64,000 bases of DNA. Origin: Escherichia phage ELT1. This document shows, in pieces, positions 35,745 through 61,272 of this stretch. Location: the sequence record MZ892903.1; one strand, 5' to 3'. Position numbers and translations under genes: made by a program. The notes beneath the pieces are model-generated. The model saw only the letters and a program-made list of their open reading frames with translations, was not told the DNA's origin and ran no database searches. The number at the start of each line of letters is the position of its first letter. The stretch's first letter is position 1.

Positions 35745-35747
35745 AGC

Positions 35748-37335: not shown

Positions 37336-37343
37336 AATAAAAT

Positions 37344-37357: not shown

Positions 37358-37362
37358 ACTCC

Positions 37363-42591: not shown

Positions 42592-42815
42592 AAGTCCTCA
42601 ACTTGAAAATCGTCTTTAAACAGTCGGTTAACTATATGAGCTATTATATCACCATGACACGGCTTTGGTTTACATGTGCATCCTAGCCTCATTCCACGTA
42701 AAGGCTCTAAATGTGCTTTAGTTATTTCTCCGGATTTAATTCGACGTATAAAATCTTTTTTGAATAATTCAATGGCAGCCTCCCGGCTGCCAGCATCTTT
42801 ACCGACGTAAAGGCT
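42582..42815 (-). pseudogene. ATG-less reading frame with Cys-x-Cys...Cys-His motif; likely distal part of a frame-disrupted small gene
   Basis: 77 sense codons ...[56 protein letters not shown]... with no ATG/GTG/TTG until an internal Met; stop overlaps nrdA ATG. Confidence 0.35.
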
Positions 42816-42907
42816 CTAAATGTACCACGGTGAATATTAACATCAAAGTCGGATTTGTATTTATTCACTACCTGACATAGACGGCCCGCGCGGTAATAAT
42901 TCGTCAT
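42722..42907 (-). CDS. Hypothetical protein; possible N-terminal part of the frame-disrupted gene
   Basis: 61-aa ORF ending 93 nt inside the region also covered by the ATG-less frame. Confidence 0.4.
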
Positions 42908-43136
42908 ATTGTTGTTCCGTTAAAACAGTAATATCATAGTAACAATCTGAAGAAGTTTTAACTGTAGAAATTTTATTATCAAAATACTCACGAGTCATTT
43001 TATGAGTATAATATTTTTTGCCATAAATGATAATAGGCTGATTTGGTCCTGGAACTTCTAACTCACTTGGATTAGGAAGTGTAAAAAGAACTACACCAGA
43101 AGTATCTTTAAATCGTAAAATCATATATCCTCGCAA
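42861..43136 (-). CDS. Hypothetical protein
   Basis: 91-aa ORF directly downstream of td exon 2. Confidence 0.5.
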
Positions 43137-43147
43137 TTAAATTAAAA

Positions 43148-43459
43148 TTACACCGCCATTTTTCCTTTCAAGACACCGTGGGATTGATAATCTTTGAGAA
43201 CGAAATCTTTAGGCCTGAGTTTAAGAATGTATTCCAATTGTTCTTTAGTAGAAAGATAGCGGAATTTATAAGGCAATCCGCCTATTACCAGTTCACATAG
43301 TTCTTTAGGCTCACGACGCAAAATTTCTTTACATTGTTCTACGTGATTCATATAGATATGAGTATTACCACCAGAAAATATCAAATCTCCTGGAATAAGA
43401 TTACACATCTTAGCTACAATATGAACTAACGCAGCATATGATGCAATGTTGAACGGTAG
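43148..43459 (-). CDS. td: Thymidylate synthase, exon 2
   Basis: Begins LPFNIASYA...; exon junction ...ttcttgggt|ctaccgttc... matches the T4 td splice context as recalled. Confidence 0.9.
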   Translation of the reverse strand, partial: LPFNIASYAALVHIVAKMCNLIPGDLIFSGGNTHIYMNHVEQCKEILRREPKELCELVIGGLPYKFRYLSTKEQLEYILKLRPKDFVLKDYQSHGVLKGKMAV

Positions 43460-44475
43460 CATTATGTTCAGATAAGGTCGTTAATCTTACCCCGGAATTA
43501 TATCCAGCTGCATGTCACCATGCAGATCAGACTATATCTCCAACTTGTTAAAGCAAGTTGTCTATCGTTTCGAGTCACTTGACCCTACTCCCCAAAGGGA
43601 TAGTCGTTAGGCATTTATGTAGAACCAATTCCATTTATCAGATTTTACACGATAAGTAACTAATCCAGACGAAATTTTAAAATGTCTAGCTGCATCTGCT
43701 GCACAATCAAAAATAACCCCATCACATGAAATCTTTTTAATATTACTAGGCTTTTTACCTTTCATCTTTTCTGATATTTTAGATTTAGTTATGTCTGAAT
43801 GCTTATGATTAAAGAATGAATTATTTTCACCTGAACGATTTCTGCATTTACTACAAGTATAAGCAGAAGTTTGTATGCGAACACCGCACTTACAAAACTT
43901 ATGGGTTTCTGGATTCCAACGCCCGTTTTTACTTCCGGGTTTACTGTAAAGAGCTTTCCGACCATCAGGTCCAAGTTTAAGCATCTTAGCTTTAACAGTT
44001 TCAGAACGTTTCTTAATAATTTCTTCTTTTAATGGATGCGTAGAACATGTATCACCAAACGTTGCATCAGCAATATTGTATCCATTAATTTTAGAATTAA
44101 GCTCTTTAATCCAAAAATTTTCTCGTTCAATAATCAAATCTTTCTCATATGGAATTTCTTCCAAAATAGAACATTCAAACACATTACCATGTTTGTTAAA
44201 AGACCTCTGAAGCTTTATAGAAGAATGGCATCCTTTTTCTAAATCTTTAAAATGCCTCTTCCATCTCTTTTCAAAATCTTTAGCACTTCCTACATATACT
44301 TTATTGTTTAAAGTATTTTTAATCTGATAAATTCCGCTTTTCATAAATACCTCTTTAAATATAGAAGTATTTATTAAAGGGCAGTCCTACAATTTAGCAC
44401 GGGATTGTCTACTAGAGAGGTTCCCCGTTTAGATAGATTACAAGTATAAGTCACCTTATACTCAGGCCTCAATTA
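43460..44475 (-). mobile_element. Group I intron in td (1016 nt) carrying I-TevI
   Basis: Intron starts taattgaggcctgagtataaggtgac..., ends ...ataatg; length 1016 nt equals the T4 td intron. Confidence 0.9.
43607..44344 (-). CDS. I-TevI: Intron-encoded GIY-YIG homing endonuclease I-TevI
   Basis: 245-aa ORF; N-terminal GIY-YIG (MKSGIYQIKNTLNNKVYVGSA), zinc finger CKCGVRIQTSAYTCSKC, C-terminal DNA-binding region. Confidence 0.92.
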   Translation of the reverse strand: MKSGIYQIKNTLNNKVYVGSAKDFEKRWKRHFKDLEKGCHSSIKLQRSFNKHGNVFECSILEEIPYEKDLIIERENFWIKELNSKINGYNIADATFGDTCSTHPLKEEIIKKRSETVKAKMLKLGPDGRKALYSKPGSKNGRWNPETHKFCKCGVRIQTSAYTCSKCRNRSGENNSFFNHKHSDITKSKISEKMKGKKPSNIKKISCDGVIFDCAADAARHFKISSGLVTYRVKSDKWNWFYINA

Positions 44476-45023
44476 ACCCAAGAAAACATCTACTGATCGT
44501 TGATACCACTGCAAATCCAAATATCCATTACGCACATTAAACTGATAAAACATATGACAAGGCGGTAATGACATATATTTAAGTTCAGCTGGATTCCACG
44601 CAGAAACAATTTGACGCCTATCATTCGGCAGTTTTTTAATACGATCAACAACTTCTACAATTTGGTCTACACCGCCAAAATCACGCCATTGTTTTCCATA
44701 AATTGGACCAAGTTCACCGCTATGGTATCCTAAATCTTTTGCTTGATTTTCGTAATTTTCATCCCAGACTGTTTTGCCTTGAATTAATGAATCATGCTGA
44801 ATTAATCGCAAATCATTGACATTTGTGCTTCCCGATAAAAACCATATTAGCTCAGCAATGCAAGCTTTCCAGGCGAGCTTCTTAGTCGTTACTGCAGGAA
44901 AACCTTTAGTTAAATCCCAGCGTAATTTAGTACCGAACAAAGCAATTGTTCCTGTGCCTGTTCGGTCATCGGTTTCATAACCGTTTTCCAGGATATCTTT
45001 AATTAAAAATTGGTATTGTTTCA

Positions 45024-45024
<1 letters not shown>
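44476..45024 (-). CDS. td: Thymidylate synthase, exon 1
   Basis: Starts MKQYQFLIKDILENGYETDDRTGTGT (T4 TS N-terminus as recalled); 183 codons; exon 1 plus exon 2 = 286 aa. Confidence 0.9.
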
Positions 45025-46056
<1,032 letters not shown>

Positions 46057-46066
46057 ATTATTTTCC

Positions 46067-46309
46067 TTAAACAGACTTTTTCACAATTTTCCAATCAGCT
46101 TTAAACTGTTCAACGTCAGAATGGTAAATCCAGAATCCTGCGCTTTCTCCGTCTTCATAAAGAGGACATCCATCGCATTCATCTTCCCATCCCATATCAC
46201 GTAAAAGATGTTCAGCTTTTTCAACAAGTTCAGAATCTTTACCGATGATATTAAAATACCATTTACCTCTAACTTCTGAATCTTTGATGCTCTGGCGTTG
46301 TAATCTCAT
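46067..46309 (-). CDS. Hypothetical protein
   Basis: 80-aa ORF. Confidence 0.5.
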   Translation of the reverse strand: MRLQRQSIKDSEVRGKWYFNIIGKDSELVEKAEHLLRDMGWEDECDGCPLYEDGESAGFWIYHSDVEQFKADWKIVKKSV

Positions 46310-46369
46310 TTTATTCTCCTCAGTAGTTGATAGGGTAATAGTATCACACTACTACCCTGCTGTAAACAA

Positions 46370-46663
46370 TTATTTTTGAATTTTATCGAGCCACTTACCA
46401 AGCTTAATCATTTCTTTAGTAGCCTTTTCCATACTTCTGAACTTAACCAATAGAGGATAGGTATCGACACCCATAACTAAACTGGTTACAAGACTGTGTT
46501 CACCCACAAGCCATAACGAATACGTTTGAATATCGAGTCCGTAATTTCTGTCTTTATGGACCCGTACACCCATCACTTCAAATTTCTCACTAGCTTTTTC
46601 TACCGCATCCAGGAAATCATCTTTAGTCATATTAGGCCTTAAAAGTTTTTCGCAAAAGTTCAA
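46370..46663 (-). CDS. Hypothetical protein (start uncertain)
   Basis: 97-aa ORF overlapping upstream ORF by 32 nt; an internal Met may be the true start. Confidence 0.45.
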   Translation of the reverse strand: MNFCEKLLRPNMTKDDFLDAVEKASEKFEVMGVRVHKDRNYGLDIQTYSLWLVGEHSLVTSLVMGVDTYPLLVKFRSMEKATKEMIKLGKWLDKIQK

Positions 46664-47018
46664 TGATTTCGTCTACATTATTTTCGTCAACAATGCAGTG
46701 AATTTTTGTTACGCCAGAAACTATACCTTCATTAGCGGATTGAGGCTTTTCTAAAGTTACCTCAGTAAAGTATTTGAATTCTTCAGAGTAAATCTCAAAA
46801 TACGTCTCAAGTGGGCCACCCGCCATGTATTCAGTACCATCTTCCATAGTTACACGTACCACACATTCACCAGCACAATCATCACTTTCCATTTCATCTA
46901 CAACAAAACTAGGTCCGTGCTTCTCTATTAAATTTAGCATCATTACATTGCAACGGCACTCGTTAGCAAAGTCATTTTTAAATAAAGGGTTAATGATATA
47001 AGTTTTTCCAACTTCCAC
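46632..47018 (-). CDS. Hypothetical protein
   Basis: 128-aa ORF. Confidence 0.5.
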   Translation of the reverse strand: MEVGKTYIINPLFKNDFANECRCNVMMLNLIEKHGPSFVVDEMESDDCAGECVVRVTMEDGTEYMAGGPLETYFEIYSEEFKYFTEVTLEKPQSANEGIVSGVTKIHCIVDENNVDEIIELLRKTFKA

Positions 47019-47038
47019 TTTGATTTCCTCATTTTAAC

Positions 47039-47057
47039 GGGGCTATCAAATAGCCCC
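47039..47057. terminator. Stem-loop ggggctat-caa-atagcccc
   Basis: 8-bp perfect stem. Confidence 0.45.
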
Positions 47058-47064
47058 TTGATAA

Positions 47065-47292
47065 TTATTGTTCAATCAGTCCCATGTAAAATTCTGCGTC
47101 TTCAGAATCCATGCCATCGCAATATTCATTAGCCATAAAGAGGGTGAGGTCTTCAAGAGGACCTTTAATAACGATTTGAATACTCCAAAACTTAGAATCT
47201 TGCACGCTTGTGATACTAAGTTCAGGATAACGATTACGAATAATCTCTTCAATATATTCAAAATCAACGATGTCAATATCAACTTTAGCCAT
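47065..47292 (-). CDS. Hypothetical protein, 75 aa
   Basis: Start placed at MAKVDIDIV preceded by AAAGAGGA ribosome-binding site; track ORF extends to 47355. Confidence 0.5.
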
Positions 47293-47396
47293 ATTATTTT
47301 CCTCTTTAATCATCAGCAGTATTGCCGATAGTTGTATAGTACCATGGAAGGACAAGGATGTAAACAGTTTTGTGAAAAAATTTTTGAAATAAAAAA

Positions 47397-47415
47397 GGGG
47401 ACCTCTAGGGTCCCC
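47397..47415. terminator. Stem-loop ggggaccc-tag-gggtcccc
   Basis: Just downstream of gene 32 stop; T-run follows on minus strand. Confidence 0.5.
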
Positions 47416-47437
47416 AATTAATTAGTAATATAATCTA

Positions 47438-48343
47438 TTAAAGGTCATTCAAAAGGTCATCCAGGTCCGTGTCATCAGCACTAGATGAACTGCCAGAGCT
47501 TGAGCTCATAAAATCATCTTCAGTTTTTGTTTTGAAGTCATCAACATTGAATGCATCCAAATCATCAGCAACTTTATCAGCTTTCTTAGCGGCAGTCGCT
47601 GCGGCACCACCCATAGCAGCAGTTCCCATAACTTGACTGAACTTAGTGCTCAGTTCTTCGAACGATTTGAATTTATCTTTAGAAGTCATTTCAGAAAGGT
47701 CAACCATTTGTTCGAACAGTTCTTTCTGGAAAGATTCATCATCAATGTTTGGAATCGCAGATTGATTCAGGAATTTAGATTCGTCGTAGTTACTAAAACC
47801 AGAAACTTGTTTAACTTTCAGTACAAAGTTAGCACCTTCCCACGGACAAGTTACATCAACCGGAGTTTCACCCATTTCAACATCAACCGCAATCATCGCG
47901 TTGATTTTATCCCAGATTTTCTTACCGAAACGGTATTTAAATACTTTACCTTCGTTTTCTGGAGCAGCCGGGTCTTTTACAACAAGAATATTAGCCCAGT
48001 AAGAAGTTTTACGTTTAACAAGACTGTACTCTTTATTGTCAGTGTTGTACAAATCATTTTTACTGATGTATTGACATACTGGGCAAGAATCGTAATCACC
48101 GTGGGTAGATGAACATGTTTCAATATACCATTTACCATTTTTCTTGAAACCGTGATTTACAAGAATTGCGAATGGTGCTTGTTCATCATTTTTAGACGGA
48201 AGAAAACGAATTACTGCTTGACCGTTACCCGCATTATCGAGTTTCAGTTTCCACTCGCCTTTATCTTCAGAAGAAAAACCTTTATTGCCATTCAGTTTAG
48301 CCATTTGTGCAGCGAGTTCAGCAGTAGATTTACGTTTAAACAT
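47438..48343 (-). CDS. 32: Single-stranded DNA-binding protein gp32
   Basis: 301-aa ORF; N-terminus [23 protein letters not shown] and acidic Ser/Asp-rich C-terminus match T4 gp32. Confidence 0.97.
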
Positions 48344-48410
48344 TTTTATTTCCTTTTTAATTTAATTAACAGTTGGTGCTATGACGATGTATGACCTCAT
48401 AGCTGGTCAG
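48344..48410 (-). promoter_or_regulatory. Gene 32 translational operator (pseudoknot plus unstructured UUAAA-rich gp32-binding leader)
   Basis: Minus strand reads ...agctatgaggtcatacatcgtcatagcac...gttaattaaattaaaaaggaaataaaaATG, as recalled for the T4 gene 32 autoregulatory leader. Confidence 0.6.
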
Positions 48411-48426
48411 TGAGATAATTATAATT

Positions 48427-48434
48427 TATTTATA
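48427..48434 (-). promoter_or_regulatory. T4-type late promoter core (minus strand) for gene 32
   Basis: Plus-strand tatttata. Confidence 0.45.
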
Positions 48435-48442
48435 ATAAGCAA

Positions 48443-49096
48443 TTAATACTTGCAAGATTTCACAGTTTCAATAAAAACACTTTTAGCTTTCTGTGAATCA
48501 ATATTTAAAATTTTTCTATAAGCCTTTAACTTTATAGAATAATTATTCCAGACTAAATTATCAGTCTGTTCATCGTGTTTATCAATTATATTTAAAAACG
48601 AATCAAGCAAGATAAACGTCTCAAACGAAATTATGTTCGATTGCAGAAGTTTAAAAATATAACTTGATTGAACTTTTGGATTATATTCAAAAATTTCTTT
48701 AAAAGCAGAAACTTCAACTTTTTTACTGAAATAGTAAATGTTGCGAATATCTTCTTCAAACTTAAATTTAATTTGCTTTAAGCGTCCGATATATTCACGA
48801 TAAAACACAAGTGCATCAGCGTCAGAGATGTCACCAATCCAAGCATCTTGGTTAGCAACCAAATTACTTATAAAGATTAAAGCAAGTTCCTTTAATTTAT
48901 ATTTTTCTGATAACTTCTGAAAAAAATACTTATCCCTTCGCTTTTGATAAGCGGCATCAGACACCCGCATGCACCAATTATACTTAATAACATCATACTT
49001 TCCATTCATATGTTGTTTTATCATTAAGTATAATTTATAAACTGATTTACCATCAATATATCTTTCACCACCAGCAGGCATGCGGAGTTTAATCAT
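48443..49096 (-). CDS. 59: gp59 helicase loader
   Basis: 217-aa ORF; length and position match T4 gp59. Confidence 0.9.
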   Translation of the reverse strand: MIKLRMPAGGERYIDGKSVYKLYLMIKQHMNGKYDVIKYNWCMRVSDAAYQKRRDKYFFQKLSEKYKLKELALIFISNLVANQDAWIGDISDADALVFYREYIGRLKQIKFKFEEDIRNIYYFSKKVEVSAFKEIFEYNPKVQSSYIFKLLQSNIISFETFILLDSFLNIIDKHDEQTDNLVWNNYSIKLKAYRKILNIDSQKAKSVFIETVKSCKY

Positions 49097-49431
49097 AGTA
49101 GAAAATCTAATGTATTAGTTTTTTCACAACGAACAACAGAAGGACGTAAAAGATTTTCGTCGATAGCTTCTGACTGAATTTTTTCAATTATACCCGAAGG
49201 AATAAATTTAGCAAATTGAGTTTCAGGAATAGAGTTTTCTTCCAAGAATGCTGTCGTAGCTTCAAGATAACTCATTCCAAACTCTTCTACCATTTTTTCA
49301 ATAATAAATCCATTTTCTTGGCGGTCAAGAAGCTTTGCAATTTCATCCTTTTCTTTCTTAATTGAAAGTTCTTTTTCTGAAAGACCGGTCTCATCGACCG
49401 GACGAATATCATTTAGAGAAAACTGTGTCAT
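49093..49431 (-). CDS. 33: gp33 late-transcription co-activator
   Basis: 112 aa from MTQFSLNDIRPV; matches T4 gp33 length. Confidence 0.85.
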   Translation of the reverse strand: MTQFSLNDIRPVDETGLSEKELSIKKEKDEIAKLLDRQENGFIIEKMVEEFGMSYLEATTAFLEENSIPETQFAKFIPSGIIEKIQSEAIDENLLRPSVVRCEKTNTLDFLL

Positions 49432-49678
49432 AAAGTTCAACTACCTCTTCAGTTTCAGCTTCAAACACATCACGGTTATCTTTATGATACAAAGCTAACA
49501 GACGATTAAACATCTTACCATCAACGCCAAGTTCATCTTTGGCACGAATTCGAATATCTTTAATCAATTCATTATAACCAGAAATTTTCAGTTTATGATC
49601 AGATGCTTCTTTAATAAATTTAGCCAAATCTTCGCCATGGATAGCTTCATCAAATTCAACCATTTCTTTTTTAGCCAT
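49409..49678 (-). CDS. dsbA: DsbA double-stranded DNA-binding protein
   Basis: 89-aa ORF; length and position match T4 DsbA. Confidence 0.8.
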   Translation of the reverse strand: MAKKEMVEFDEAIHGEDLAKFIKEASDHKLKISGYNELIKDIRIRAKDELGVDGKMFNRLLALYHKDNRDVFEAETEEVVELYDTVFSK

Positions 49679-49686
49679 TATTCACC

Positions 49687-50604
49687 TCAAAATTCATTAA
49701 TGCTATTAGTTAATTTAGAAAGACCCGCTTTTACAAAATATGAATAAATTTTGCCACGTGGTGGTAATTTATATGAATTATAGTAATTCACGATGTTTGA
49801 AGCAATATTATCAGGAATATAATCAAAATCAATTAGAACTAAATTTTCTTTATAACGATTATATTCAGATTCTGTGAGAAGCACCTTAGCTTGCTCACGG
49901 TCATTAGCAATAGCTTCGACAATAGAGGTTTTCATTGAAGGAGTTCGTTCACCTTCAACTCTAGTAAACCAAAAGTCAGACCGTACTTTAACTGAAGCAA
50001 CGTTATCCTTTTTGTCACCTTTAAGGATTTTAGTCATACAGTCAATTTCAGCAGAACCGCTTTTAATTTTAACCCATTTCTTGTGCATCGGTGACCATTG
50101 CTTAACATTTGGGTATTTGTGAAGTTGAGTAAAGTCACCATCCGACGAAATGATTAAAATCTTATGTCCTTCTAAAGAGAACTTTTTAACAAGAACAGCA
50201 ATATGGTCATCTGCTTCATACTTATCAATATCCATAACGATGTATGGCATATAAGCTTTCAGTTCATCTATAACTTTATGACTGGATTCAAAATAACCTT
50301 CCCAATCCCAAGTAGATTCTTCTCGTGCTTTTCCACGGTTTTTCTTATAATAATAAGCAAAATCACGACGCCAGTATCCAGATTTCGCGTTATCAATACA
50401 CAGTACAATTTTAGTGTATCCAAGAGTTTTTGCTTTTTTGACATTAAACTTAATTGAGTTCAATATCAAATGACGAACCATTGATAAATTAATTTTTTCT
50501 TTATCTGGAAAGTTTACCAAAGCAGTTGAAAGCGCAATCTGACTAAAGTCAATTAAGCAGATTCCTTCTTTGTAATCTTCATCCAGCATCATTTCTAAAT
50601 CCAT
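49687..50604 (-). CDS. rnh: RNase H (5'-3' exonuclease)
   Basis: 305 aa from MDLEMMLDEDYKEGICLIDF; matches T4 RNase H as recalled. Confidence 0.9.
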   Translation of the reverse strand: MDLEMMLDEDYKEGICLIDFSQIALSTALVNFPDKEKINLSMVRHLILNSIKFNVKKAKTLGYTKIVLCIDNAKSGYWRRDFAYYYKKNRGKAREESTWDWEGYFESSHKVIDELKAYMPYIVMDIDKYEADDHIAVLVKKFSLEGHKILIISSDGDFTQLHKYPNVKQWSPMHKKWVKIKSGSAEIDCMTKILKGDKKDNVASVKVRSDFWFTRVEGERTPSMKTSIVEAIANDREQAKVLLTESEYNRYKENLVLIDFDYIPDNIASNIVNYYNSYKLPPRGKIYSYFVKAGLSKLTNSINEF

Positions 50605-50708: not shown

Positions 50709-53700
50709 ATGGCCGAGATTAAAAGAAAGTTCAGAGCAGAAGATGGTCTGGACGCAGGTGGCGATAAAATAATCAACGTAGCTTTAGCTGATCGTGCCGT
50801 AGGAACTGACGGTGTTAACGTTGATTACCTAATTCAAGAAAACACAGTTCAACAATATGATCCAACTCGTGGATATTTAAAAGATTTTGTAATCATTTAT
50901 GATAACCGCTTTTGGGCTGCTATAAATGATATTCCAAAACCGGCAGGAGCTTTTAATAGCGTGCGCTGGAGAGCATTACGTACTGATGCAAACTGGACAA
51001 CTGTTTCGTCAGGACCTTATCAATTAAAGTCAGGTGAATCAATTTCAGTTAATACTGCAGCAGGAAATGATATCACATTTACTTTGCCAACTTCTCCAAT
51101 TGATGGAGATACTATCGTTCTTCAAGATATTGGTGGAAAACCTGGAGTTAACCAAGTTTTAATTGTAGCTCCAGTGCAAAGTATTGTAAACTTTAGAGGC
51201 GAACAAGTACGATCAGTACTAATGACCCATCCAAAATCACAGATAGTTTTAATTTTTAGTAATCGTCTGTGGCAAATGTATGTGGCTGATTATAGCAGAG
51301 AAGCGGTAGTTGTGACGCCAGCAAGTCTCTACCAGGCGCAGTCAAACGATTTTATCGTACGCAGATTTACTTCTGCTGCACCGATAAATATTAAACTTCC
51401 GAGATTTGCTAATCATGGCGATATTATTAATTTCGTTGATTTAGATAAATTAAATCCTCTTTATCATACAATTGTTACTACATATGATGAAACTACATCA
51501 GTACAAGAAGATGGAACTCATTCCATTGAAGGCCGTACATCTATTGATGGTTTCTTGATGTATGATGATAATGAGAAATTATGGAGATTATTTGACGGGG
51601 ATAGTAAAGCACGTTTACGCGTTATAACAACTAATTCTAATATTCGTCCAAACGAAGAAGTTATGGTATTTGGTGCGAATAATGGAACAACTCAAACAAT
51701 TGAACTTCAGCTTCCGACCGATATTTCCATTGGCGATACTGTTAAAATTTCCATGAATTACATGAGAAAAGGCCAAACAGTTAAAATCAAAGCTGCCGGT
51801 GAAGATAAAATTGCTTCTTCAGTTCAATTGCTGCAATTCCCAAAACGTTCAGAATATCCACCTGAAGCTGAATGGGTGACTGTTCAAGAATTAGTTTTTA
51901 ACGGTGAAACTAATTATGTTCCAGTTTTACAACTTGCTTATATCGAAGATTCTGACGGAAAATACTGGGTTGTACAGCAAAACGTTCCAACAGTTGAAAG
52001 AGTCGATTCTTTAAATAATTCTACTAGAGCAAGATTAGGCGTAATTGCTTTAGCTACACAAGCTCAAGCTAACGTCGATTTAGAAAATTCTCCACAAAAA
52101 GAATTGGCAATTACTCCAGAAACGTTAGCTAACCGTACTGCTACAGAAACTCGTAGAGGTATTGCAAGAATAGCAACCACTGCTCAAGTGAACCAGGACA
52201 CTACATTCTCTTTTGCTGATGATATTATCATCACTCCTAAAAAGCTGAATGAAAGAACTGCTACAGAAACTCGTAGAGGTGTTGCTGAAATTGCTACACA
52301 GCAAGAAACTAACGCAGGTACTGATGATGCTACAATCATCACTCCTAAAAAGCTTCAAGCTCGTCAAGGTTCTGAATCATTATCTGGTATTGTAACCTTT
52401 GTATCTACCGCAGGAGCTACTCCAGCTTCTAGTCGTGAATTAAATGGTACGAATGTTTATAATAAAAACACTGATAATTTAGTTGTTTCACCTAAAGCTT
52501 TGGATCAGTATAAAGCTACTCCAACACAACAAGGTGCGGTAATTTTAGCAGTTGAAAGTGAAGTAATTGCTGGACAGAGCCAAGAAGGATGGGCAAATGC
52601 GGTTGTAACGCCAGAAACGTTACATAAAAAGACATCAACTGATGCAAGAATTGGTTTAATTGAAATTGCTACGCAAAGTGAAGTTAATACAGGAACTGAT
52701 TATACCCGTGCAGTCACTCCTAAAACTTTAAATGACCGTAAAGCAACTGAAAGTTTAAGTGGTATAGCTGAAATTGCTACGCAAGTTGAATTCGACGCAG
52801 GCGTCGACGATACTCGTATCTCTACACCATTAAAAATTAAAACCAGATTTAACAGTACTGATCGTACTTCTGTTGTTGCTCTATCTGGATTAGTTGAATC
52901 AGGAACTCTCTGGGACCATTATACCCTTAATATTCTTGAAGCAAATGAGACACAACGTGGTACACTTCGTGTAGCTACGCAAGTTGAAGCTGCTGCAGGA
53001 ACATTAGATAATGTTCTAATAACTCCTAAAAAGCTTTTAGGTACTAAATCTACTGAAGCGCAGGAAGGCGTTATTAAAGTTGCAACTCAGTCTGAAACTG
53101 TAACTGGAACGTCAGCAAATACTGCTGTATCTCCAAAAAATTTAAAATGGATTGTGCAGAGTGAACCTACCTGGGCAGCTACTACTGCAATAAGAGGTTT
53201 TGTTAAAACTTCATCTGGTTCAATTACATTCGTTGGTAATGATACAGTCGGTTCTACCCAAGATTTAGAACTGTATGAGAAAAATAGCTATGCGGTATCA
53301 CCATATGAATTAAACCGTGTATTAGCAAATTATTTGCCATTAAAAGCAAAAGCTGTAGATAGTAATTTATTGGATGGTCTAGATTCATCTCAGTTCATTC
53401 GTAGGGATATTGCACAGACGGTTAATGGTTCACTAACCTTAACCCAACAAACGAATCTGAGTGCCCCTCTTGTATCATCTAGTACTGCTACGTTTGGTGG
53501 TTCAGTTTCGGCAAATAGTACATTAACTATTTCTAATACTGGAACGGCAACTCGTCTGATTTTTGAGAAAGGACCTCAAACTGGAACTAACCCAGCGCAG
53601 ACGATGACTATCAGAGTTTGGGGAAATCAGTTTGGTGGTGGATCAGATACAACACGTTCTACTGTATTTGAAGTTGGTGATGAAACATCTAATCACTTTT

Positions 53701-54578
53701 ATTCTCAACGTAATAAAGCTGGTAATATTACGTTTAGCATTAATGGTACTGTGATGCCAATAAATGTTAACGCTTCCGGTTCATTGAATGCGAATGGCGC
53801 AGCAACATTTGGTAGTTCAGTTACAGCCAATGGTGAATTCATTAGCAAGTCTGCAAATGCTTTCAGAGCAATAAACGGTGATTATGGATTCTTTATTCGC
53901 AACGATGCTGCTAACACCTATTTCATGCTTACTGCATCGGGTGATCAGACTGGCGGATTTAATGGATTACGTCCTTTAGCTATTAACAATCAGTCCGGTC
54001 AAGTAACGATTGGTGAAAGCTTAATCATTGCCAAAGGTGCTACTATAAATTCAGGTGGTTTAACTGTTAACTCGAGAATTCGTTCTCAGGGCACTAAAAC
54101 TTCTGACTTATATACCCGTGCGCCAACATCTGATACTGTAGGATTCTGGTCAATCGATATTAATGATTCAGCCACTTATAATCAGTTCCCAGGTTATTTT
54201 AAAATGGTTGAAAAAACTAATGAAGTGACTGGGCTTCCGTACTTAGAACGCGGTGAAGAAGTTAAATCTCCTGGTACATTGACTCAGTTTGGTAACACAC
54301 TTGATTCGCTTTACCAAGATTGGATTACTTATCCAACGACTCCAGAAGCACGTACCACTCGCTGGACACGTACATGGCAGAAAACCAAAAATTCTTGGTC
54401 GAGTTTTGTTCAGGTATTTGATGGAGGTAACCCTCCTCAGCCGTCTGATATCGGTGCTTTGCCATCTGATAATGCTACAATGGGGAATCTTACTATTCGT
54501 GATTTCTTACGAATTGGTAATGTTCGCATTATTCCTGACCCAGTGAATAAATCTGTTAAATTTGAATGGATTGAATAA
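50709..54578 (+). CDS. 34: Long tail fibre proximal subunit gp34
   Basis: 1289-aa ORF with internal sequence repeats; length equals T4 gp34. Confidence 0.95.
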   Translation: MAEIKRKFRAEDGLDAGGDKIINVALADRAVGTDGVNVDYLIQENTVQQYDPTRGYLKDFVIIYDNRFWAAINDIPKPAGAFNSVRWRALRTDANWTTVSSGPYQLKSGESISVNTAAGNDITFTLPTSPIDGDTIVLQDIGGKPGVNQVLIVAPVQSIVNFRGEQVRSVLMTHPKSQIVLIFSNRLWQMYVADYSREAVVVTPASLYQAQSNDFIVRRFTSAAPINIKLPRFANHGDIINFVDLDKLNPLYHTIVTTYDETTSVQEDGTHSIEGRTSIDGFLMYDDNEKLWRLFDGDSKARLRVITTNSNIRPNEEVMVFGANNGTTQTIELQLPTDISIGDTVKISMNYMRKGQTVKIKAAGEDKIASSVQLLQFPKRSEYPPEAEWVTVQELVFNGETNYVPVLQLAYIEDSDGKYWVVQQNVPTVERVDSLNNSTRARLGVIALATQAQANVDLENSPQKELAITPETLANRTATETRRGIARIATTAQVNQDTTFSFADDIIITPKKLNERTATETRRGVAEIATQQETNAGTDDATIITPKKLQARQGSESLSGIVTFVSTAGATPASSRELNGTNVYNKNTDNLVVSPKALDQYKATPTQQGAVILAVESEVIAGQSQEGWANAVVTPETLHKKTSTDARIGLIEIATQSEVNTGTDYTRAVTPKTLNDRKATESLSGIAEIATQVEFDAGVDDTRISTPLKIKTRFNSTDRTSVVALSGLVESGTLWDHYTLNILEANETQRGTLRVATQVEAAAGTLDNVLITPKKLLGTKSTEAQEGVIKVATQSETVTGTSANTAVSPKNLKWIVQSEPTWAATTAIRGFVKTSSGSITFVGNDTVGSTQDLELYEKNSYAVSPYELNRVLANYLPLKAKAVDSNLLDGLDSSQFIRRDIAQTVNGSLTLTQQTNLSAPLVSSSTATFGGSVSANSTLTISNTGTATRLIFEKGPQTGTNPAQTMTIRVWGNQFGGGSDTTRSTVFEVGDETSNHFYSQRNKAGNITFSINGTVMPINVNASGSLNANGAATFGSSVTANGEFISKSANAFRAINGDYGFFIRNDAANTYFMLTASGDQTGGFNGLRPLAINNQSGQVTIGESLIIAKGATINSGGLTVNSRIRSQGTKTSDLYTRAPTSDTVGFWSIDINDSATYNQFPGYFKMVEKTNEVTGLPYLERGEEVKSPGTLTQFGNTLDSLYQDWITYPTTPEARTTRWTRTWQKTKNSWSSFVQVFDGGNPPQPSDIGALPSDNATMGNLTIRDFLRIGNVRIIPDPVNKSVKFEWIE

Positions 54579-54586: not shown

Positions 54587-55702
54587 ATGGAAAAATTTAT
54601 GGCAGAGTTTGGACAAGGATATGTCCAAACGCCATTTTTATCGGAAAGTAATTCAGTAAGATACAAAATAAGTATAGCGGGTTCTTGCCCGCTTTCTACT
54701 GCAGGACCATACGTTAAATTTCAGGATAATCCTGTTGGAAGTCAAACATTTAGCGCAGGTCTTCATCTAAGAGTTTTTGACCCTTCCACCGGAGCATTAG
54801 TTGATAGTAAGTCATATGCTTTTTCGACTTCAAATGATACTACATCAGCTGCTTTTGTTAGTTTCATGAATTCTTTGGCGAATAATAGACTTGTTGCTAT
54901 ATTAACTAGCGGAAAGGTTAATTTTCCTCCTGAAGTAGTATCTTGGTTAAGAACCGCAGGAACGTCTGCTTTTCCATCTGATTCTTTATTGTCAAGATTT
55001 GACGTATCATATGCTGCCTTTTATACTTCTTCTAAAAGAGCTATTGCATTAGAACATGTTAAACTAAGTAATAGAAAAAGCACAGATGATTATCAAACTA
55101 TTTTAGATGTTGTATTTGACAGTTTAGAGGACGTTGGAGCCACAGGATTTCCTAAAAGAACATACGAAAGCGTTGAGCAATTTATGTCAGCGGTTGGTGG
55201 AACTAATAACGAAATTGCACGTTTACCAACTTCATCCGCGATAAGTAAACTCTCTGATTATAATTTAATTCCTGGCGATGTTCTTTATCTTAAAGCACAG
55301 CTATATGCTGATGCCGATTTACTTGCGCTTGGAACTACAAATATATCTATCCGTTTTTATGATGAATCGAATGGATATATTTCTTCAACACATGCTGAGT
55401 TTACTGGACAAGCTGGGTCATGGGAATTAAAGGAAGATTATGTAGTTGTTCCAGAAAATGCAGTAGGATTTACGATATACGCGCAAAGGACTGCACAAGC
55501 TGGTCAAGGTGGCATGAGGAATTTAAGCTTTTCGGAAGTGTCAAGAAATGGCGGAATTTCAAAACCTGCTGAATTTGGCGTCAATGGTATTCGAGTTAAT
55601 TATATCTGTGAATCTGCTTCACCTCCGGATATAATGGTACTTCCTACGCAAGCATCGTCTAAAGCTGGTAAAGTATTTGGGCAAGAATTTAGAGAAGTAT
55701 AA
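54587..55702 (+). CDS. 35: Long tail fibre hinge protein gp35
   Basis: 371-aa ORF; position and length match T4 gp35. Confidence 0.9.
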   Translation: MEKFMAEFGQGYVQTPFLSESNSVRYKISIAGSCPLSTAGPYVKFQDNPVGSQTFSAGLHLRVFDPSTGALVDSKSYAFSTSNDTTSAAFVSFMNSLANNRLVAILTSGKVNFPPEVVSWLRTAGTSAFPSDSLLSRFDVSYAAFYTSSKRAIALEHVKLSNRKSTDDYQTILDVVFDSLEDVGATGFPKRTYESVEQFMSAVGGTNNEIARLPTSSAISKLSDYNLIPGDVLYLKAQLYADADLLALGTTNISIRFYDESNGYISSTHAEFTGQAGSWELKEDYVVVPENAVGFTIYAQRTAQAGQGGMRNLSFSEVSRNGGISKPAEFGVNGIRVNYICESASPPDIMVLPTQASSKAGKVFGQEFREV

Positions 55703-55707
55703 ATTGA

Positions 55708-55725
55708 GGGAGCCTTCGGGTTCCC
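55708..55725 (+). terminator. Stem-loop gggagcc-ttcg-ggttccc followed by T-run
   Basis: Immediately after gene 35 stop. Confidence 0.5.
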
Positions 55726-55764
55726 TTTTTCTTTATAAATACTATTAAAATAAAGGGGCATACA

Positions 55765-56421
55765 ATGGCTGATTTAAAAGTAGGTTCAACAACTGGAGGC
55801 TCTGTCATTTGGCATCAAGGAAATTTTCCATTGAATCCAGCCGGTGACGATGTACTCTATAAATCATTTAAAATATATTCAGAATATAATAAGCCACAGG
55901 CAACTGATAACGATTTCGTTTCTAAAGCTAATGGCGGTACGTATTTAAATAAAGTAATTTTTAATAAAGGAATGACTGTTCCTGGTGCAGGGTCAGGTGA
56001 CAATGGTATTTTTGCTGGTCCTGGTGATAATGCCACGTATGATACTACAAATATGGATATCGTTTCGTGGTATGGTATTGGTTTTAAATCATCACAAGGA
56101 ACAGCAGGTAGAACTGTAGTAATTAACACGCGAAATGGAGATATTAGCTCAAAGGGCGTAATTGAAGCATCACAAATACGCGCAACTTCATTATCACCAG
56201 TAAATAATTATGACCTTACACGGAAAGATTATGTTGATGGAGCAATAAATATTGTTACAGCAAACGCAAACTCTAGAGTATTACGCTCTGGAGACACTAT
56301 GACGGGAAATTTGACTGCGCCAAACCTTTTTTCACAGAATCCTGCATCTCAACCCTCACATGTTCCACGATTTGATCAAATTGTTATTAAGGATTCTGTT
56401 CAAGATTTCGGCTATTATTAA
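55765..56421 (+). CDS. 36: Long tail fibre distal connector gp36
   Basis: 218-aa ORF; position matches T4 gp36. Confidence 0.9.
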   Translation: MADLKVGSTTGGSVIWHQGNFPLNPAGDDVLYKSFKIYSEYNKPQATDNDFVSKANGGTYLNKVIFNKGMTVPGAGSGDNGIFAGPGDNATYDTTNMDIVSWYGIGFKSSQGTAGRTVVINTRNGDISSKGVIEASQIRATSLSPVNNYDLTRKDYVDGAINIVTANANSRVLRSGDTMTGNLTAPNLFSQNPASQPSHVPRFDQIVIKDSVQDFGYY

Positions 56422-56429: not shown

Positions 56430-59400
56430 ATGGCTACTTTAAAACAAATACAATTTAAAAGAAGCAAAACTGCAGGAGCACGTCCTGCCGCTTCAGTATT
56501 AGCCGAAGGTGAATTGGCTATAAACTTAAAAGACCGTGTACTTTTTACTAAAGATGACCAAGGAAATATTATTGATCTGGGTTTTGCTAAAGGCGGTAGT
56601 ATTGACGGGAATGTTATTCATACAGGCAATTATAACCAAACTGGCGATTATACTTTAAATGGCGTCTTCACTCAGACTGGTAATTTTAATTTAACTGGTA
56701 TTGCTCGAGTAACTCGCGATATTATTGCCGCCGGGCAGATTATGACTGAAGGCGGAGAACTTATTACAAAAAGTTCAGGTACAGCGCATGTTCGTTTTTT
56801 CGATGGCAATAGTCGCGAACGTGGAATCATTTATGCCCCGGCTAATGATGGTTTAACTACACAAGTACTTAATATCAGGGTTCAAGACTACGCCGCTGGT
56901 AACGAAAGCATTTATGCATTTTCAGGCAGTGGCCTATTTACTTCACCTGAAGTATCAGCATGGAAATCTATTTCGTCTCCACAAATTCTGACCAACAAAG
57001 TCATTACTAATAATAAATCTACGGGTGATTATGACATCTATTCGATGGCAGACAATGTTCCAATATCTGAAAGCACTACTGCTATTAATCGTCTCCGTGT
57101 CATGCGTAATGCAGTCGGTTCTGGCATTTTCCATGAAGTTAAAGATAATGATGGAATAACTTGGTACAGCGGAGATGGGCTAGACGCTTATCTTTGGTCA
57201 TTTACATGGAGCGGCGGAATTAAATCGAGTCACTCAATTTCTATCGGTTTAACACCTGGCAATAAAGATTATTCAATACTAGGACCATCTAGTATTGCTT
57301 TAGGGGATAATGATACTGGATTTAAATGGCACCAGGATGGATATTATTTCAGCGTCAATAATGGAACGAAAACATTTTTATTTAGCCCTAGCGAAACAAC
57401 TAGCCTAAGAAAATTTGTAGCTGGATATTCTACCAATGGAACCGATTTAACTACTCCTCCTACTGAAAATTATGCTCTCGCTACTGTTGTTACATATCAT
57501 GATAATAACGCGTTTGGAGATGGTCAGACTCTTTTAGGATATTATCAAGGCGGTAGATATCATCATTATTTTCGTGGAAGAGGAACAACTAATATTAATA
57601 CCGCTGGAGGATTATTAGTTACTCCTGGTAATATTGATGTTATTGGTGGTTCTGTTAATATCGATGGTAGAAATAATGCTTCTACATTGATGTTTAAAGG
57701 TAACACAACTGGTAGTAGTTCAGTTGATAATATGACAATTTCCGTGTGGGGTAATACGTTTATTAATCCTAGCGAAGGCACCCGTAAAAACGTAATGGAA
57801 ATATCTGATGCTACTAGCTGGATGCAATATATTCAACGAACAACTGCTGGTAAAGTCGAATCGGTTCTAAATGGCACCCAGATTGTTAATGAAAACTTGA
57901 CAGTAGTAAAAAATGCTACATTTGACGGTACAATCAGCGCAGCCGGTGAAATCGCGACAAATGCTGTAAATGGTCTTCGTATTTGGAACAATGATTACGG
58001 TGCCATTTTTAGACGTTCAGAAGGAAGTCTTCATATTATTCCTACAGCATTTGGCGAAGGACAGAATGGTGATATCGGCCCACTTCGTCCATTTAGTATA
58101 TCTTTAGATACAGGTAAGGTTGTTATTCCTGACTTGGATTTGAGTTATGCTTCTTTTGCAGCAAATGGCTATATTAAATTTGCTGGTCATGGAGCTGGGG
58201 CTGGAGGTTATGCCGTTCAATATGCTCAAGCGGCTCCTATTTTCCAGGAAATTGATGATGATGCTGTAAGCAAATATTATCCTATTGTTAAACAGAAATT
58301 CTTAAACGGTAAAGCAGTTTGGTCTTTAGGTACTGAAATTAATTCTGGTACATTCGTTATTCATCATCTGAAAGAAGATGGTTCACAAGGCCATACGTCT
58401 CGTTTTAATCAAGACGGTACTGTTAACTTCCCAGATAACGTTTCTGTCGGCGGCGGCGAAGCTACTATTGCTCGCAATGGTAACATCTGGTCTGATATCT
58501 GGAAACCGTTTACTTCAGCAGGCGACGTAACTAATATTCGCGATGCTATTGCGACTCGTGTTTCGAAAGAAGGCGATACAATGACAGGCCGTTTAACTCT
58601 TAATGCCAACTCGGATGTTATTGTTATTAATAGTGCTGCAAGCGAATCCGGTTATATGAAAGGACAAAAAGCAGGCGTTGATAACTGGTATGTTGGTAAC
58701 GGCGGCACCGATAATACTATATCATTTTACAGTTTCCAAACTAACAGCGGTATTAACATTAATGATGTCGGAGAAATTGCTTTATCTCCTCAAGGGTCTG
58801 CTACTTTTAATTTTAATAGGGATCGTCTTTATATAAATGGAGCATACTGGACTGCGCACCAAGCTGGCGATTGGAGAAGTCAATGGCGTCAAGAAGCTCC
58901 GATATTTGTAGATTTTGGCTACGTAGGTAATGATAGTTATTATCCAATTATCAAAGGAAAATCTGTCATTACTAACGAAGGATACGTATCTGGTGTTGAT
59001 TTCGGTATGCGACGCAGTGCGAATAACTGGGCGCAAGGTATTATTCGTGTAGGTAACCAGGAAAATGGTTCTGACCCACAAGCTATCTTCGAATTCCACC
59101 ATAATGGAAACATGTACGTTCCTGACATGGTTAAAGCTGGAGTAAGATTATCAGCTGGTGGAGGTGACCCTGCATGGACAGGCGCATGTGTTGTTATTGG
59201 TGATAATGATACCGGATTAGTTCATGGTGGTGATGGCCGAATCAATATGGTTGCCAATGGTGTGCATATTGCATCTTGGTCCGACTCTTACCATATCCAT
59301 GAAGGTCTTTGGGATACACATGGTGCTTTGTGGACTGAAACAGGAAAAGCTATTATTTCTTTTGGTCATTTAGTCCAACAAAACGATAGCTATTCAACAT

Positions 59401-59759
59401 TTGTTCGTGACGTTTATGTTCGTTCTGATATCCGTGTTAAAAAAGACCTTGTTAAATTTGAAAATGCTTCACAAACACTTTCAAAAATTAACGGTTACAC
59501 TTATATGCAGAAACGTGGCCTGGATGAAGAAGGTAATCAGAAATGGGAACCTAATGCCGGTTTAATTGCTCAAGAAGTTCAAGCTATTTTGCCTGAATTA
59601 GTTGAAGGTGACCCGGATGGTGAAGCTTTACTTCGTTTGAACTATAACGGTGTAATTGGTTTAAATACAGCTGCAATCAATGAGCATACTGCAGAAATTG
59701 CAGAACTTAAATCAGAAATCGAAGAACTTAAAGCATTAGTTAAATCGTTGTTAAAATAA
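56430..59759 (+). CDS. 37: Long tail fibre distal subunit gp37 (T2-type, with C-terminal intramolecular chaperone domain)
   Basis: 1109-aa ORF; N-terminus conserved with gp37; C-terminal about 111 aa begins SDIRVKKDL, typical of self-cleaving chaperone domains. Confidence 0.9.
59424..59756 (+). other. Predicted intramolecular chaperone (peptidase S74-like) domain of gp37, released by autocleavage before the Ser of SDIRVKK
   Basis: Motif R|SD(I)R(V)KK plus coiled-coil C-terminus resembling endosialidase / T5 L-shaped fibre chaperone domains. Confidence 0.6.
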
Positions 59760-59762
59760 TAA

Positions 59763-59778
59763 GAGGGGCTTCGGCCCC
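59763..59778 (+). terminator. Stem-loop aggggc-ttcg-gcccct
   Basis: Immediately after gene 37 stop. Confidence 0.45.
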
Positions 59779-59790
59779 TTGGAGGTTTAT

Positions 59791-60585
59791 ATGGCAGTAA
59801 CAGGACCGTGGGTAGGATCGTCTGCAGTAGTTAATACAGGACAAAATTGGATGGGTGGCGCGGCCCAACGATTAAGAATGGGCATTCCGTTCTGGATGAG
59901 TAATATGATAGGTCGATCTGTTGAAGTAATTCATACACTTGGAGCAGACCATAACTTTAATGGTCAATGGTTCCGAGATAGATGTTTTGAGGCAGGTAGT
60001 GCACCTATAGTGTTTAATATCACAGGAAATTTGGTATCATATTCTAGAGATGTTCCTTTATTCTTCATGTATGGAGATACACCAAATGAATATGTTCAGT
60101 TGAATATTAGCGGTGGAGCTCATATGTGGGGCAGAGGTGGACAAGGTGGATGGACTCATTCTGGTGGAGATGGTAATGGTCAACAGGGTGGACATTGTAT
60201 TCAAAATGACATTGGTGGTCGATTAAGAATTAATAATGGTGGAGTAATTTGTGGCGGTGGTGGCGGTGGTGGCGGTATCGCTTATCGTCCTCACTCTGGC
60301 GCAAGGTGGCAAGATATTGGTGGCGGTGGAGGAAGACCATTTGGCCCAGGAGGAGGCGGAGGTTATTCCGGTGGCGCAGCTTCTTATGATGGCCCAGGAG
60401 GTGGTTATAATTATGGTAATGCTCACTCTGGCCAGGGTGGTGATGCTGGCGCAAATGGACAAAATGCCTGGCATGATGGCGGTAAAGTTCTAAAAGTTGG
60501 AGCTGGTGGCGCTGCCGGATATGCTGTTATAGGATCAGCTCCAACATGGCAAAATGTTGGAGCAATATATGGTCCAAGAGTATAA
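59791..60585 (+). CDS. 38: gp38 receptor-recognising adhesin (T2/T6-type, glycine-rich motifs)
   Basis: 264 aa from ATG at 59791 with GGAGG ribosome-binding site; conserved N-terminal gp37-attachment region followed by poly-Gly motifs separating variable segments. Confidence 0.85.
60254..60277 (+). repeat. GGY-codon microsatellite (ggcggtggt)n inside gene 38
   Basis: 24 bp of perfect GGC/GGT triplet repeats encoding GGGGGGGG. Confidence 0.8.
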
Positions 60586-60615
60586 TTTGAATAAATATCC
60601 TTAAAAGGAGGGTCT

Positions 60616-61272
60616 ATGGCAGCACCTAGAATATCATTTTCGCCCTCTGATATTCTGTTGGGTGTTCTAGATCGCTTGTTCAAAGATAACGCTACCGGGA
60701 AGGTTCTTGCTTCCCGAGTAGCTGTCGTAATTCTTTTATTTATGATGGCGATTGTTTGGTATAGGGGAGATAGTTTCTTTGAGTACTATAAGCAATCAAA
60801 GTATGAAACATACAGTGAAATTATTGAAAAGGAAAGAAATGCACGCTTTGAATCTGTCGCCCTGGAACAACTCCAGATAGTTCATATATCATCTGAGGCA
60901 GACTTTAGTGCGGTGTATTCTTTCCGCCCTAAAAACTTAAACTATTTTGTTGATATTATAGCATACGAAGGAAAATTACCTTCAACAATAAATGAAAAAT
61001 CACTTGGAGGATATCCTGTTGATAAAACTATGGATGAATATACAGTTCATTTAAATGGACGTCATTATTATTCCGACTCAAAATTTGCTTTTTTACCAAC
61101 TAAAAAGCCTACTCCAGAAATAAACTACATGTACAGTTGTCCATATTTTAATTTGGATAATATCTATGCTGGAACAATAACCATGTACTGGTATAGAAAT
61201 GATCATATAAGTAATGACCGCCTTGAATCAATATGTGCACAGGCGGCCAGAATATTAGGAAGGGCTAAATAA
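60616..61272 (+). CDS. t: Holin T
   Basis: 218-aa ORF; N-terminal TM segment and large periplasmic domain; matches T4 holin as recalled. Confidence 0.93.
   Translation: MAAPRISFSPSDILLGVLDRLFKDNATGKVLASRVAVVILLFMMAIVWYRGDSFFEYYKQSKYETYSEIIEKERNARFESVALEQLQIVHISSEADFSAVYSFRPKNLNYFVDIIAYEGKLPSTINEKSLGGYPVDKTMDEYTVHLNGRHYYSDSKFAFLPTKKPTPEINYMYSCPYFNLDNIYAGTITMYWYRNDHISNDRLESICAQAARILGRAK

Follow-up and report, generated by a model that had tools for sequence, protein, structure and literature searches.

Genes 37 and 38 of Escherichia phage ELT1 (MZ892903.1) very probably make up the distal module of the long tail fibre in a Tequatrovirus of the T2/T6 type, in which an autocleaving gp37 carries a gp38 adhesin whose likely receptor is OmpA, and we give this reading a probability of about 0.9. 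The combination of an autocleaving gp37 with a polyglycine gp38 adhesin has been described in genetic work from the 1980s on and in structural work from 2018 on. In this regard, the locus is an ordinary, well-described tail-fibre tip of T2/T6-like E. coli phages and is already known.

The mechanism that we propose takes self-cleavage, the stoichiometry and docking of gp38, and the receptor from homologues. gp37 would be synthesised as a precursor of 1109 aa, whose C-terminal 111 residues would act as an S74-type intramolecular chaperone that makes the beta-structured tip of the fibre trimerise and fold. The Ser999/Lys1004 dyad would then cleave the R998/S999 bond, and release of the chaperone domain would uncover a tip that is flat and trimeric and has ...DVYVR at its end. 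A single copy of gp38 would dock on this tip via its aa 1-40 (W7/W20/W35), and the five Gly-rich motifs of gp38 would build a polyglycine-II sandwich presenting four hypervariable loops. These loops would bind the outer-membrane receptor of the host and thereby determine host range.

Organization of the gene 37-38 locus

We analysed a window of 64,000 nt, to which all coordinates refer; unless otherwise stated, the features described here lie on its plus strand. Genes 37 and 38 are part of the Tequatrovirus long-tail-fibre operon, with the order 34-35-36-37-38-t-asiA, and the layout is identical in HY03 (NC_031047), vB_EcoM_F1 (F1, NC_054912), FL08 (PP400785), T2, T6 and S16. Gene 37 (56430..59759) starts at an ATG and encodes the 1109-aa precursor of the long tail fibre distal subunit, while gene 38 (59791..60585), also with an ATG start, encodes a 264-aa protein that we assign by its family and structure matches to the T2-type tail-fibre tip adhesins. 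Against the PHROG profiles, gp37 matched the long tail fiber distal subunit (phrog_1699) over aa 1-1108 with E=0, and gp38 matched 'tail fiber protein; host specificity' with an E-value of 3e-111. In Pfam, gp38 matched PF21721 (Gp38_N) at aa 1-40 (76.9 bits vs a cut-off of 25, 1e-21) and PF05268 (GP38) at aa 45-264 (231.4 bits vs a cut-off of 25, 1.5e-68). Since the Pfam matches of both proteins exceed the curated cut-offs and the PHROG matches agree, genes 37 and 38 are not chance reading frames. The highest DNA identity reached by the locus was 93.3%, to HY03. Between 60223 and 60683, short ORFs that lie on the minus strand or in another frame were rejected as by-products of GGN-rich, stop-poor coding sequence.

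An exact-motif scan placed the closest T4-type late promoter motif upstream of genes 36-37-38, TATAAATA, at 55734..55741, upstream of gene 36, and found no further TATAAATA before gene 37 or gene 38. The sigma-70 promoter scan remained at background (24 found vs 20.6 expected), and scanning all of the window for Rfam families and tRNAs gave no matches.

The spacer between the two genes holds a hairpin with a C(UUCG)G tetraloop (GAGGGGC-UUCG-GCCCCUU, 59763..59780), which appears in the centroid fold at -13 kcal/mol and immediately precedes GGAGG (59781-59785), the Shine-Dalgarno sequence of gene 38. The core of this hairpin also occurs in the 37-38 spacer of T4, T2, FL08, AV119, HY03 and F1; the 66-nt segment folded is, as a whole, no more stable than its shuffles (z -0.78; 36/200 shuffles at least as good). 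In the mechanical ORF list, gp38 began at a TTG at 59779 and measured 268 aa. This start was rejected because it falls inside the 3' arm of the hairpin and overlaps the GGAGG, and because the annotated start in most homologues is the ATG of MAV..., as in the records of FL08, AV119, HY03, F1, T2, S16 and RB32; in the T6 record the start is annotated four codons further upstream.

Domain architecture of gp38

Among solved structures, gp38 matched 9V85, the receptor-binding domain of PP01 gp38 (1.7e-73), and 6F45_D, the gp38 of S16 (4.8e-52, aa 1-261). Judged by sequence, it is a T2-type adhesin over its full length. Glycine accounts for 26.5% of its residues, with runs of G8 (155-162), G5 (177-181), G5 (187-191) and G3 (203-205) and the further Gly-rich motifs GRGGQGG, GQGGDAG and GAGGAAG, which confirms the 264-aa reading frame with four or more poly-Gly motifs of an earlier note on this DNA.

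The N-terminal attachment domain (Gp38_N, aa 1-40; 59791..59910) contains W7, W20 and W35, which are invariant in an alignment of eight gp38 sequences, among them those of T2, T6 and S16. Trp residues of gp38 have been described as 'prongs' into gp37 (PMC7917993). The receptor-binding region, delimited by per-segment conservation, extends over aa 114-264 (60130..60582). Following the published scheme of Gly-rich motifs (GRM) and hypervariable segments (HVS) for gp38 (PMC3157838, PMC12032242), we placed five GRMs at aa 114-120, 133-162, 177-191, 214-223 and 238-264, with approximate boundaries, and they frame four HVS. When gp38 was compared with T2, T6 and S16, the GRMs were 56-100% identical and the HVS 0-36%. 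The variation is thus concentrated between the conserved Gly-rich motifs, as had been claimed from the sequence before. By analogy with its homologues, gp38 would sit at the tip of the virion and bind the receptor.

Receptor specificity

The four HVS of ELT1 are near-identical to those of OmpA-dependent phages. HVS1 (aa 121-132; 60151..60186) is 12/12 identical to RB32, FL08 and AV119 and 2/12 to T6, T2 and S16. For HVS2 (aa 163-176; 60277..60318), the identity is 13/14 to RB32, 11-12/14 to FL08 and AV119, and 0-3/14 to T6, T2 and S16; for HVS3 (aa 192-213; 60364..60429), the corresponding values are 22/22, 19/22 and 6-8/22, and for HVS4 (aa 224-237; 60460..60501), 14/14, 13/14 and 1-3/14. In total, 61 of the 62 HVS residues are shared with RB32, 55/62 with FL08 and 56/62 with AV119, against 11-14/62 for T6 (14/62), T2 and S16.

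The receptors of these relatives have been reported. The gp38 of RB32 uses OmpA and LPS, and its HVS block alone moved OmpA/LPS dependence to RB5 chimeras. FL08 and AV119 ('type 1') are OmpA-dependent and fail on ompA deletions, while T6 uses Tsx, T2 uses FadL/OmpF and S16 uses Salmonella OmpC. Because HVS1-4 are near-identical to the segments of RB32, FL08 and AV119, OmpA is, on this comparison, the most likely receptor of ELT1 gp38, and adsorption would depend to some extent on the LPS core, as in these three phages. The earlier note had proposed OmpC, FadL and Tsx as candidates and omitted OmpA, yet it is OmpA to which the HVS point.

Compared with RB32, the HVS differ at one position (R172 vs K), and compared with FL08 at P167/V, R172/N, D200/V, G201/A, N206/Q and H228/S. 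HVS2 includes the counterpart of FL08 R165-A170, a stretch reported to be in contact with OmpA loops. Single HVS substitutions can switch the receptor of gp38, and R172 (relative to RB32) and these FL08 differences could affect receptor use. It is therefore conceivable, but rather unlikely, that the T2-type architecture serves another receptor, namely Tsx, OmpC, OmpF, FadL or LPS alone. This alternative draws on the very few HVS substitutions needed to alter specificity, on the phylogenetic proximity of the type 1 OmpA binders to Tsx binders, and on the near gp38 relatives from O157:H7, Shigella and Salmonella hosts. It is opposed by the near-complete match to RB32, whose HVS block was sufficient for the transfer described above, and by the much higher HVS identity to FL08 and AV119 than to the Tsx-dependent T6.

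Shaft and distal tip of gp37

In the shaft, gp37 aa 418-568 (57681..58133) is homologous to the C-terminal trimerisation region of gp34, with matches to Pfam PF21446 (Gp34_trimer, 1.5e-7) and to the T4 gp34 structures 5NXF, 4UXE, 5NXH and 9X3R (~3e-16). Relative to HY03, F1 and FL08, gp37 is a mosaic: aa 700-800 are 97% identical to HY03 and 59% to F1, and aa 900-1000 reach only 80-88% identity to any of the three. The distal shaft before the docking tip (aa ~900-998) reaches at most 80-88% identity to any database relative. That this part bears a second, lateral contact with a receptor or LPS seems improbable; if it did, ELT1, with its RB32-type OmpA cassette, its attachment domain of the FL08 type and its partly new shaft, would have a host range not predictable from gp38 alone.

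The putative distal tip of the mature fibre, aa 917-998 (59178..59423), ends in ...RDVYVR and aligns, from residue 24 onwards, with 6F45_A, the S16 gp37 construct used for crystallisation. We predict that it serves as the docking platform for gp38 after the chaperone domain departs, a role described for the gp37 tip of S16 (PMC7917993).

C-terminal chaperone domain of gp37

Profile matches assign the last 111 residues of gp37 (aa 999-1109; 59424..59756) to the intramolecular chaperone (Peptidase_S74 / ICA) domains. Pfam PF13884 (Peptidase_S74) matched with 45.5 bits vs a cut-off of 22 (E 9.3e-12), with aa 999-1058 covering profile positions 1-57 of 58, and the match begins exactly at Ser999. 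A profile search of the domain against solved structures returned S16 gp37 (6F45_A, 5.7e-55), the ICA domain of MyRF (7DC3, 2.1e-10), a tail fibre (8JOV, 1.3e-6) and the chaperone domain of the GA-1 neck appendage (3GUD, 1.7e-3), in which the first residue of the chain aligns with Ser999. Together with Lys1004 (codon 59439-59441), Ser999 (codon 59424-59426) forms a Ser-x4-Lys pair at the N-terminal domain boundary, and both residues are invariant in alignments of ELT1, F1, HY03, FL08, AV119, T2, T6, S16, RB32 and database homologues. In domains of this family, cleavage takes place at this boundary, with the Ser and Lys reportedly acting as a dyad.

The self-cleavage site reported for S16 gp37, DLNVS^SDRRIKK (PMC7917993), aligns exactly with DVYVR^SDIRVKK of ELT1, and R998/S999 is the predicted scissile bond. 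Cleavage of the chaperone domain has been reported in S16 (PMC7917993) and also in T2 and T6; by analogy, gp37 of ELT1 would release its own domain autoproteolytically. Both statements of the earlier note about gp37 held up: the 1109-aa reading frame contains ...VYVR/SDIRVKKDL with the Ser at aa 999 (nt 59424), and the PF13884 match, the matches to solved chaperone domains and the alignment with the S16 site bear out an S74-like intramolecular chaperone at the C-terminus.

An AlphaFold2 monomer of gp37 aa 985-1109, based on a 9-sequence alignment, had low confidence (pLDDT 61.8, pTM 0.36), which a shallow alignment and the modelling of a single chain of an intertwined trimer would lead one to expect. 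In a Foldseek search with this model, the only non-trivial PDB matches were to the MyRF ICA domain and were weak, the best three being 7DC3 chains (probability 0.96-0.99, E 8e-3, TM 0.37-0.38, rmsd ~16 A). The model and the Foldseek matches are consistent with the chaperone fold and are not a confirmation of it. What the earlier note called a coiled coil is the long C-terminal helix at aa 1072-1108 (59643..59753). In the model this helix occupies residues 88-124, where the pLDDT, averaged over blocks of 10 residues, climbs from ~66 to 94; going by solved homologous chaperone domains, it would pack as a trimeric coiled coil. A homologous-protein search with the domain found only 10 proteins, the majority of them short fragments named 'tail fiber domain-containing protein'.

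It is very improbable that the S74-like domain is retained, inactive or uncleaved, with gp38 binding elsewhere or acting mainly as an assembly factor. The poor structural model would fit such a case, but S16, T2, T6 and RB32 share the Ser/Lys pair and the motif around it, the domain is reported as cleaved in the first three of these, and there is no variation in the Trp 'prongs' by which gp38 would attach to the surface that cleavage exposes. The T4-type arrangement, with the receptor-binding tip on gp37 and gp38 as a folding chaperone absent from the virion, is already refuted by sequence comparisons and has next to no chance of being correct: it has in its favour only the gene order, which is common to both arrangements, whereas gp38 has no similarity to T4 gp38 (best BLASTP E = 0.81, over 20 aa) and matches adhesin families and structures (9V85, 6F45_D), as the earlier note had anticipated, and the His-rich needle tip of T4 is missing from gp37, which in its last two 100-aa bins is only 1-11% identical to T4 gp37.

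Comparison with related phages

Among the closest relatives, HY03, F1 and FL08 have the same gp37 length (1109 aa), chaperone domain and cleavage motif, and 108/111 residues of the FL08 chaperone domain are identical to ELT1. Their gp38 proteins are 98.5% (HY03), 98.9% (F1) and 95.1% (FL08) identical to that of ELT1; those of HY03 and F1 measure 264 aa, as in ELT1, and that of FL08 measures 263 aa. O157:H7 was the isolation host of HY03 and of several relatives whose gp38 is 95-98% identical.

In RB32 (Trojet et al. 2011, PMC3157838), GRM1-5 of gp38 are essentially identical to ELT1, whereas the tip and chaperone domain of its 1027-aa gp37 are T6-like, the chaperone domain being only ~32% identical to that of ELT1. 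Since the gp37 of RB32 differs while the HVS are shared, one specificity cassette appears on different fibres. In S16 (PDB 6F45; Dunne et al. 2018), too, a chaperone domain follows the gp37 tip; it is autocleaving and shares 63/111 residues with that of ELT1, and S16 gp38 has the same domain order (51% identity) and the same short N-terminus, MAVxGPWVGSS. However, S16 gp37 is far shorter (749 aa), Ser rather than Arg precedes the scissile bond, and the HVS are unrelated (11/62 identical). T2 and T6 share with ELT1 the R/SDxRxK motif and a C-terminal S74 domain of ~100-113 aa, which is ~30% identical, as well as a gp38 with five GRMs and four HVS, at 46% (T2) and 69% (T6) identity. The domains of endosialidase, the GA-1 neck appendage and MyRF ICA also have profile homology and a Ser-x4-Lys pair at the N-terminal boundary, but they are of low identity and are found on tailspikes, appendages and a eukaryotic transcription factor instead of a T-even long tail fibre.

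The architecture of this locus is textbook, and it raises no new biological question. The practical outcome is a specific prediction, namely that a fibre of the HY03/FL08 type bears an OmpA-type adhesin cassette like that of RB32 and FL08. As the locus would determine host range, its typing would be useful for phage-therapy and biocontrol cocktails and for host-range engineering.

Organization of the long-tail-fibre locus

The window is a segment of a Tequatrovirus (T4-like) genome, with phage HY03 as the top match for nt 30000-50000 (96.5% identity). On the plus strand, genes 34 (50709-54578, 1289 aa), 35 (54587-55702) and 36 (55765-56421) of the long-tail-fibre operon are followed by gene 37 (56430-59759, 1109 aa), gene 38 (59791-60585, 264 aa) and holin gene t (60616-61272), after which asiA and the subsequent genes lie on the minus strand. 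The coordinates, both protein lengths and the SDIRVKK motif quoted in the earlier note were all right. A motif scan located the T4-type late-promoter motif TATAAATA at 50667 and 55734, an arrangement suggesting that a single late transcript probably covers genes 36-38. For the locus as a whole, DNA identity to records in the phage collection reached at most 93.3%.

Gene 37 ends in tandem stop codons (TAA TAA, 59757-59762), and a C(UUCG)G tetraloop hairpin (59763-59780) lies between these and the gene 38 Shine-Dalgarno sequence. This hairpin core recurs in the 37-38 spacer of T2, FL08, AV119, HY03 and F1, and even in that of T4, whose gene 38 is unrelated. Another UUCG hairpin (55706-55727), followed by a T-run, is directly 5' of the gene 36 late promoter, and CTTCGG shows about a twofold excess in the window over shuffles (32 vs 15). 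Stable intercistronic CUUCGG hairpins were reportedly described in T4 by Tuerk et al. in 1988, and we take those of the window to match them. In gp35, aa 58-127 matched the Pfam family ILEI ('Interleukin-like EMT inducer', PF15711; 34.3 bits vs a cut-off of 27), an unexpected name for a fibre hinge protein, which probably reflects a shared small beta-rich domain.

The C-terminal chaperone domain of gp37

The SDIRVKK motif begins at gp37 aa 999 (nt 59424), leaving a C-terminal fragment of 111 residues. Pfam Peptidase_S74 ('chaperone of endosialidase') matched aa 999-1058 from profile position 1, scoring 45.5 bits where the curated cut-off is 22, and aa 917-1109 aligned with the S16 gp37 construct (PDB 6F45) at E 1.6e-43. 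A profile of the chaperone region, built from ELT1, F1, HY03, FL08, AV119, T2, T6 and S16, retrieved 6F45_A (5.7e-55), the MyRF intramolecular chaperone (ICA) domain 7DC3 (2.1e-10), the tail fibre 8JOV (1.3e-6) and 3GUD, the chaperone domain of the GA-1 neck appendage (1.7e-3); the first residue of the 3GUD chain aligns with Ser999. These matches bear out the earlier claim of an S74-like chaperone domain. The Ser-x4-Lys motif (Ser999, Lys1004) was invariant in the same eight phages and in database homologues. S16 gp37 trimerises and then autocleaves between both serines of DLNVS^SDRRIKK, exposing the gp38 docking surface (PMC7917993). Since DVYVR^SDIRVKK of ELT1 aligns column for column with this site, self-cleavage at R998|S999 is predicted by homology. 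The chaperone domain shares 63 of 111 residues with its S16 counterpart, whereas those of T2, T6 and RB32 are only about 30% identical.

AlphaFold modelling, which the earlier note had suggested, of aa 985-1109 as a monomer with a shallow alignment gave low confidence (pLDDT 61.8, pTM 0.36), higher only in the long C-terminal helix (aa 1072-1108, pLDDT rising from ~66 to 94); the model is a single chain and the domain an intertwined trimer. The only Foldseek matches in the PDB with E <1 were three MyRF ICA chains (probability 0.96-0.99, but TM only 0.37-0.38). This outcome is consistent with a chaperone fold without being independent proof, and the assignment is based on the sequence-level evidence.

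gp38 belongs to the adhesin family

Pfam Gp38_N (aa 1-40, 1.1e-21) and GP38 (aa 45-264, 1.5e-68) together span the entire gp38, which also matched the solved adhesins of PP01 (9V85, 1.7e-73) and S16 (6F45_D, aa 1-261, 4.8e-52). These matches support the earlier note, which placed the protein among the adhesins; a T4-type chaperone was ruled out, as no similarity to T4 gp38 was found (best E 0.81). Glycine makes up 26.5% of gp38, with runs of G8, G5, G5 and G3 and further Gly-rich motifs. Alignment with F1, HY03, FL08, AV119, RB32, T6, T2 and S16 delimited, as had been proposed, four hypervariable segments between Gly-rich motifs; the five motifs and the C-terminal tail were conserved, reproducing the published GRM1-5/HVS1-4 scheme (PMC3157838, PMC12032242). 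In the attachment domain W7, W20 and W35 were invariant, and by analogy would be the tryptophan 'prongs' described for S16 (PMC7917993).

Over the Gly-rich part of gene 38 (60223-60683; GC 0.47, GC skew +0.37), alternative frames and the minus strand contain several 74-86-aa ORFs, which are most simply explained as stop-poor GGN-repeat artefacts rather than genes.

Modularity of the fibre tip

The specificity cassette of ELT1 gp38 is RB32-like, with an attachment domain of the FL08 type (40/40 identical) rather than the RB32/T6 type (24/42). In its tip and chaperone domain, gp37 is FL08/HY03-like, with S16 closer than either T6 or RB32. Therefore, one adhesin cassette occurs on different fibres. 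The attachment domain tracks the gp37 tip, which fits a report that T2 gp37 is compatible with PP01 gp38 only after the N-terminus of gp38 has been exchanged.

Different segments of gp37 match different relatives, at 59-100% identity, so the protein is mosaic. Residues 700-800 are 97% identical to HY03 vs 58-59% to F1 and AV119. Identity to all close relatives is only 80-88% over the ~100 aa immediately N-terminal to the cleavage site, against 95-100% in the chaperone domain. Residues 418-568 (57681-58133) are homologous to the gp34 C-terminal trimerisation region (Pfam Gp34_trimer; T4 gp34 structures at about 3e-16), and are a fibre module common to the proximal and distal half-fibres.

Receptor prediction

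Across the 62 residues of HVS1-4, ELT1 gp38 shares 61 with RB32 (OmpA + LPS), 56 with AV119 and 55 with FL08 (both OmpA, type 1), compared with 14 for T6 (Tsx) and 11 each for T2 (FadL/OmpF) and S16 (OmpC). RB32 requires OmpA, with LPS composition also having an effect, and RB5 chimeras gained the RB32 specificity from the HVS block alone (PMC3157838). Neither FL08 nor AV119 plates on ompA deletions, and R165-V-H-S-G-A of FL08, predicted to contact OmpA loops (PMC12032242), has its counterpart in R166-P-H-S-G-A of ELT1 HVS2. Because of this near-identity to OmpA-dependent phages, we predict OmpA, with LPS-core dependence, as the gp38 receptor, at a probability of roughly 0.75-0.8; since few HVS substitutions can switch receptors, the call stays a prediction.

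Overall, what the earlier note observed was confirmed and its interpretation supported. With gp38 98-99% identical to those of F1 and HY03 and 643 phage records matching the locus, every architectural feature of the ELT1 tip system is already known, and near-identical relatives exist. The receptor call is our main addition, and the value of the locus is practical, in host-range typing.
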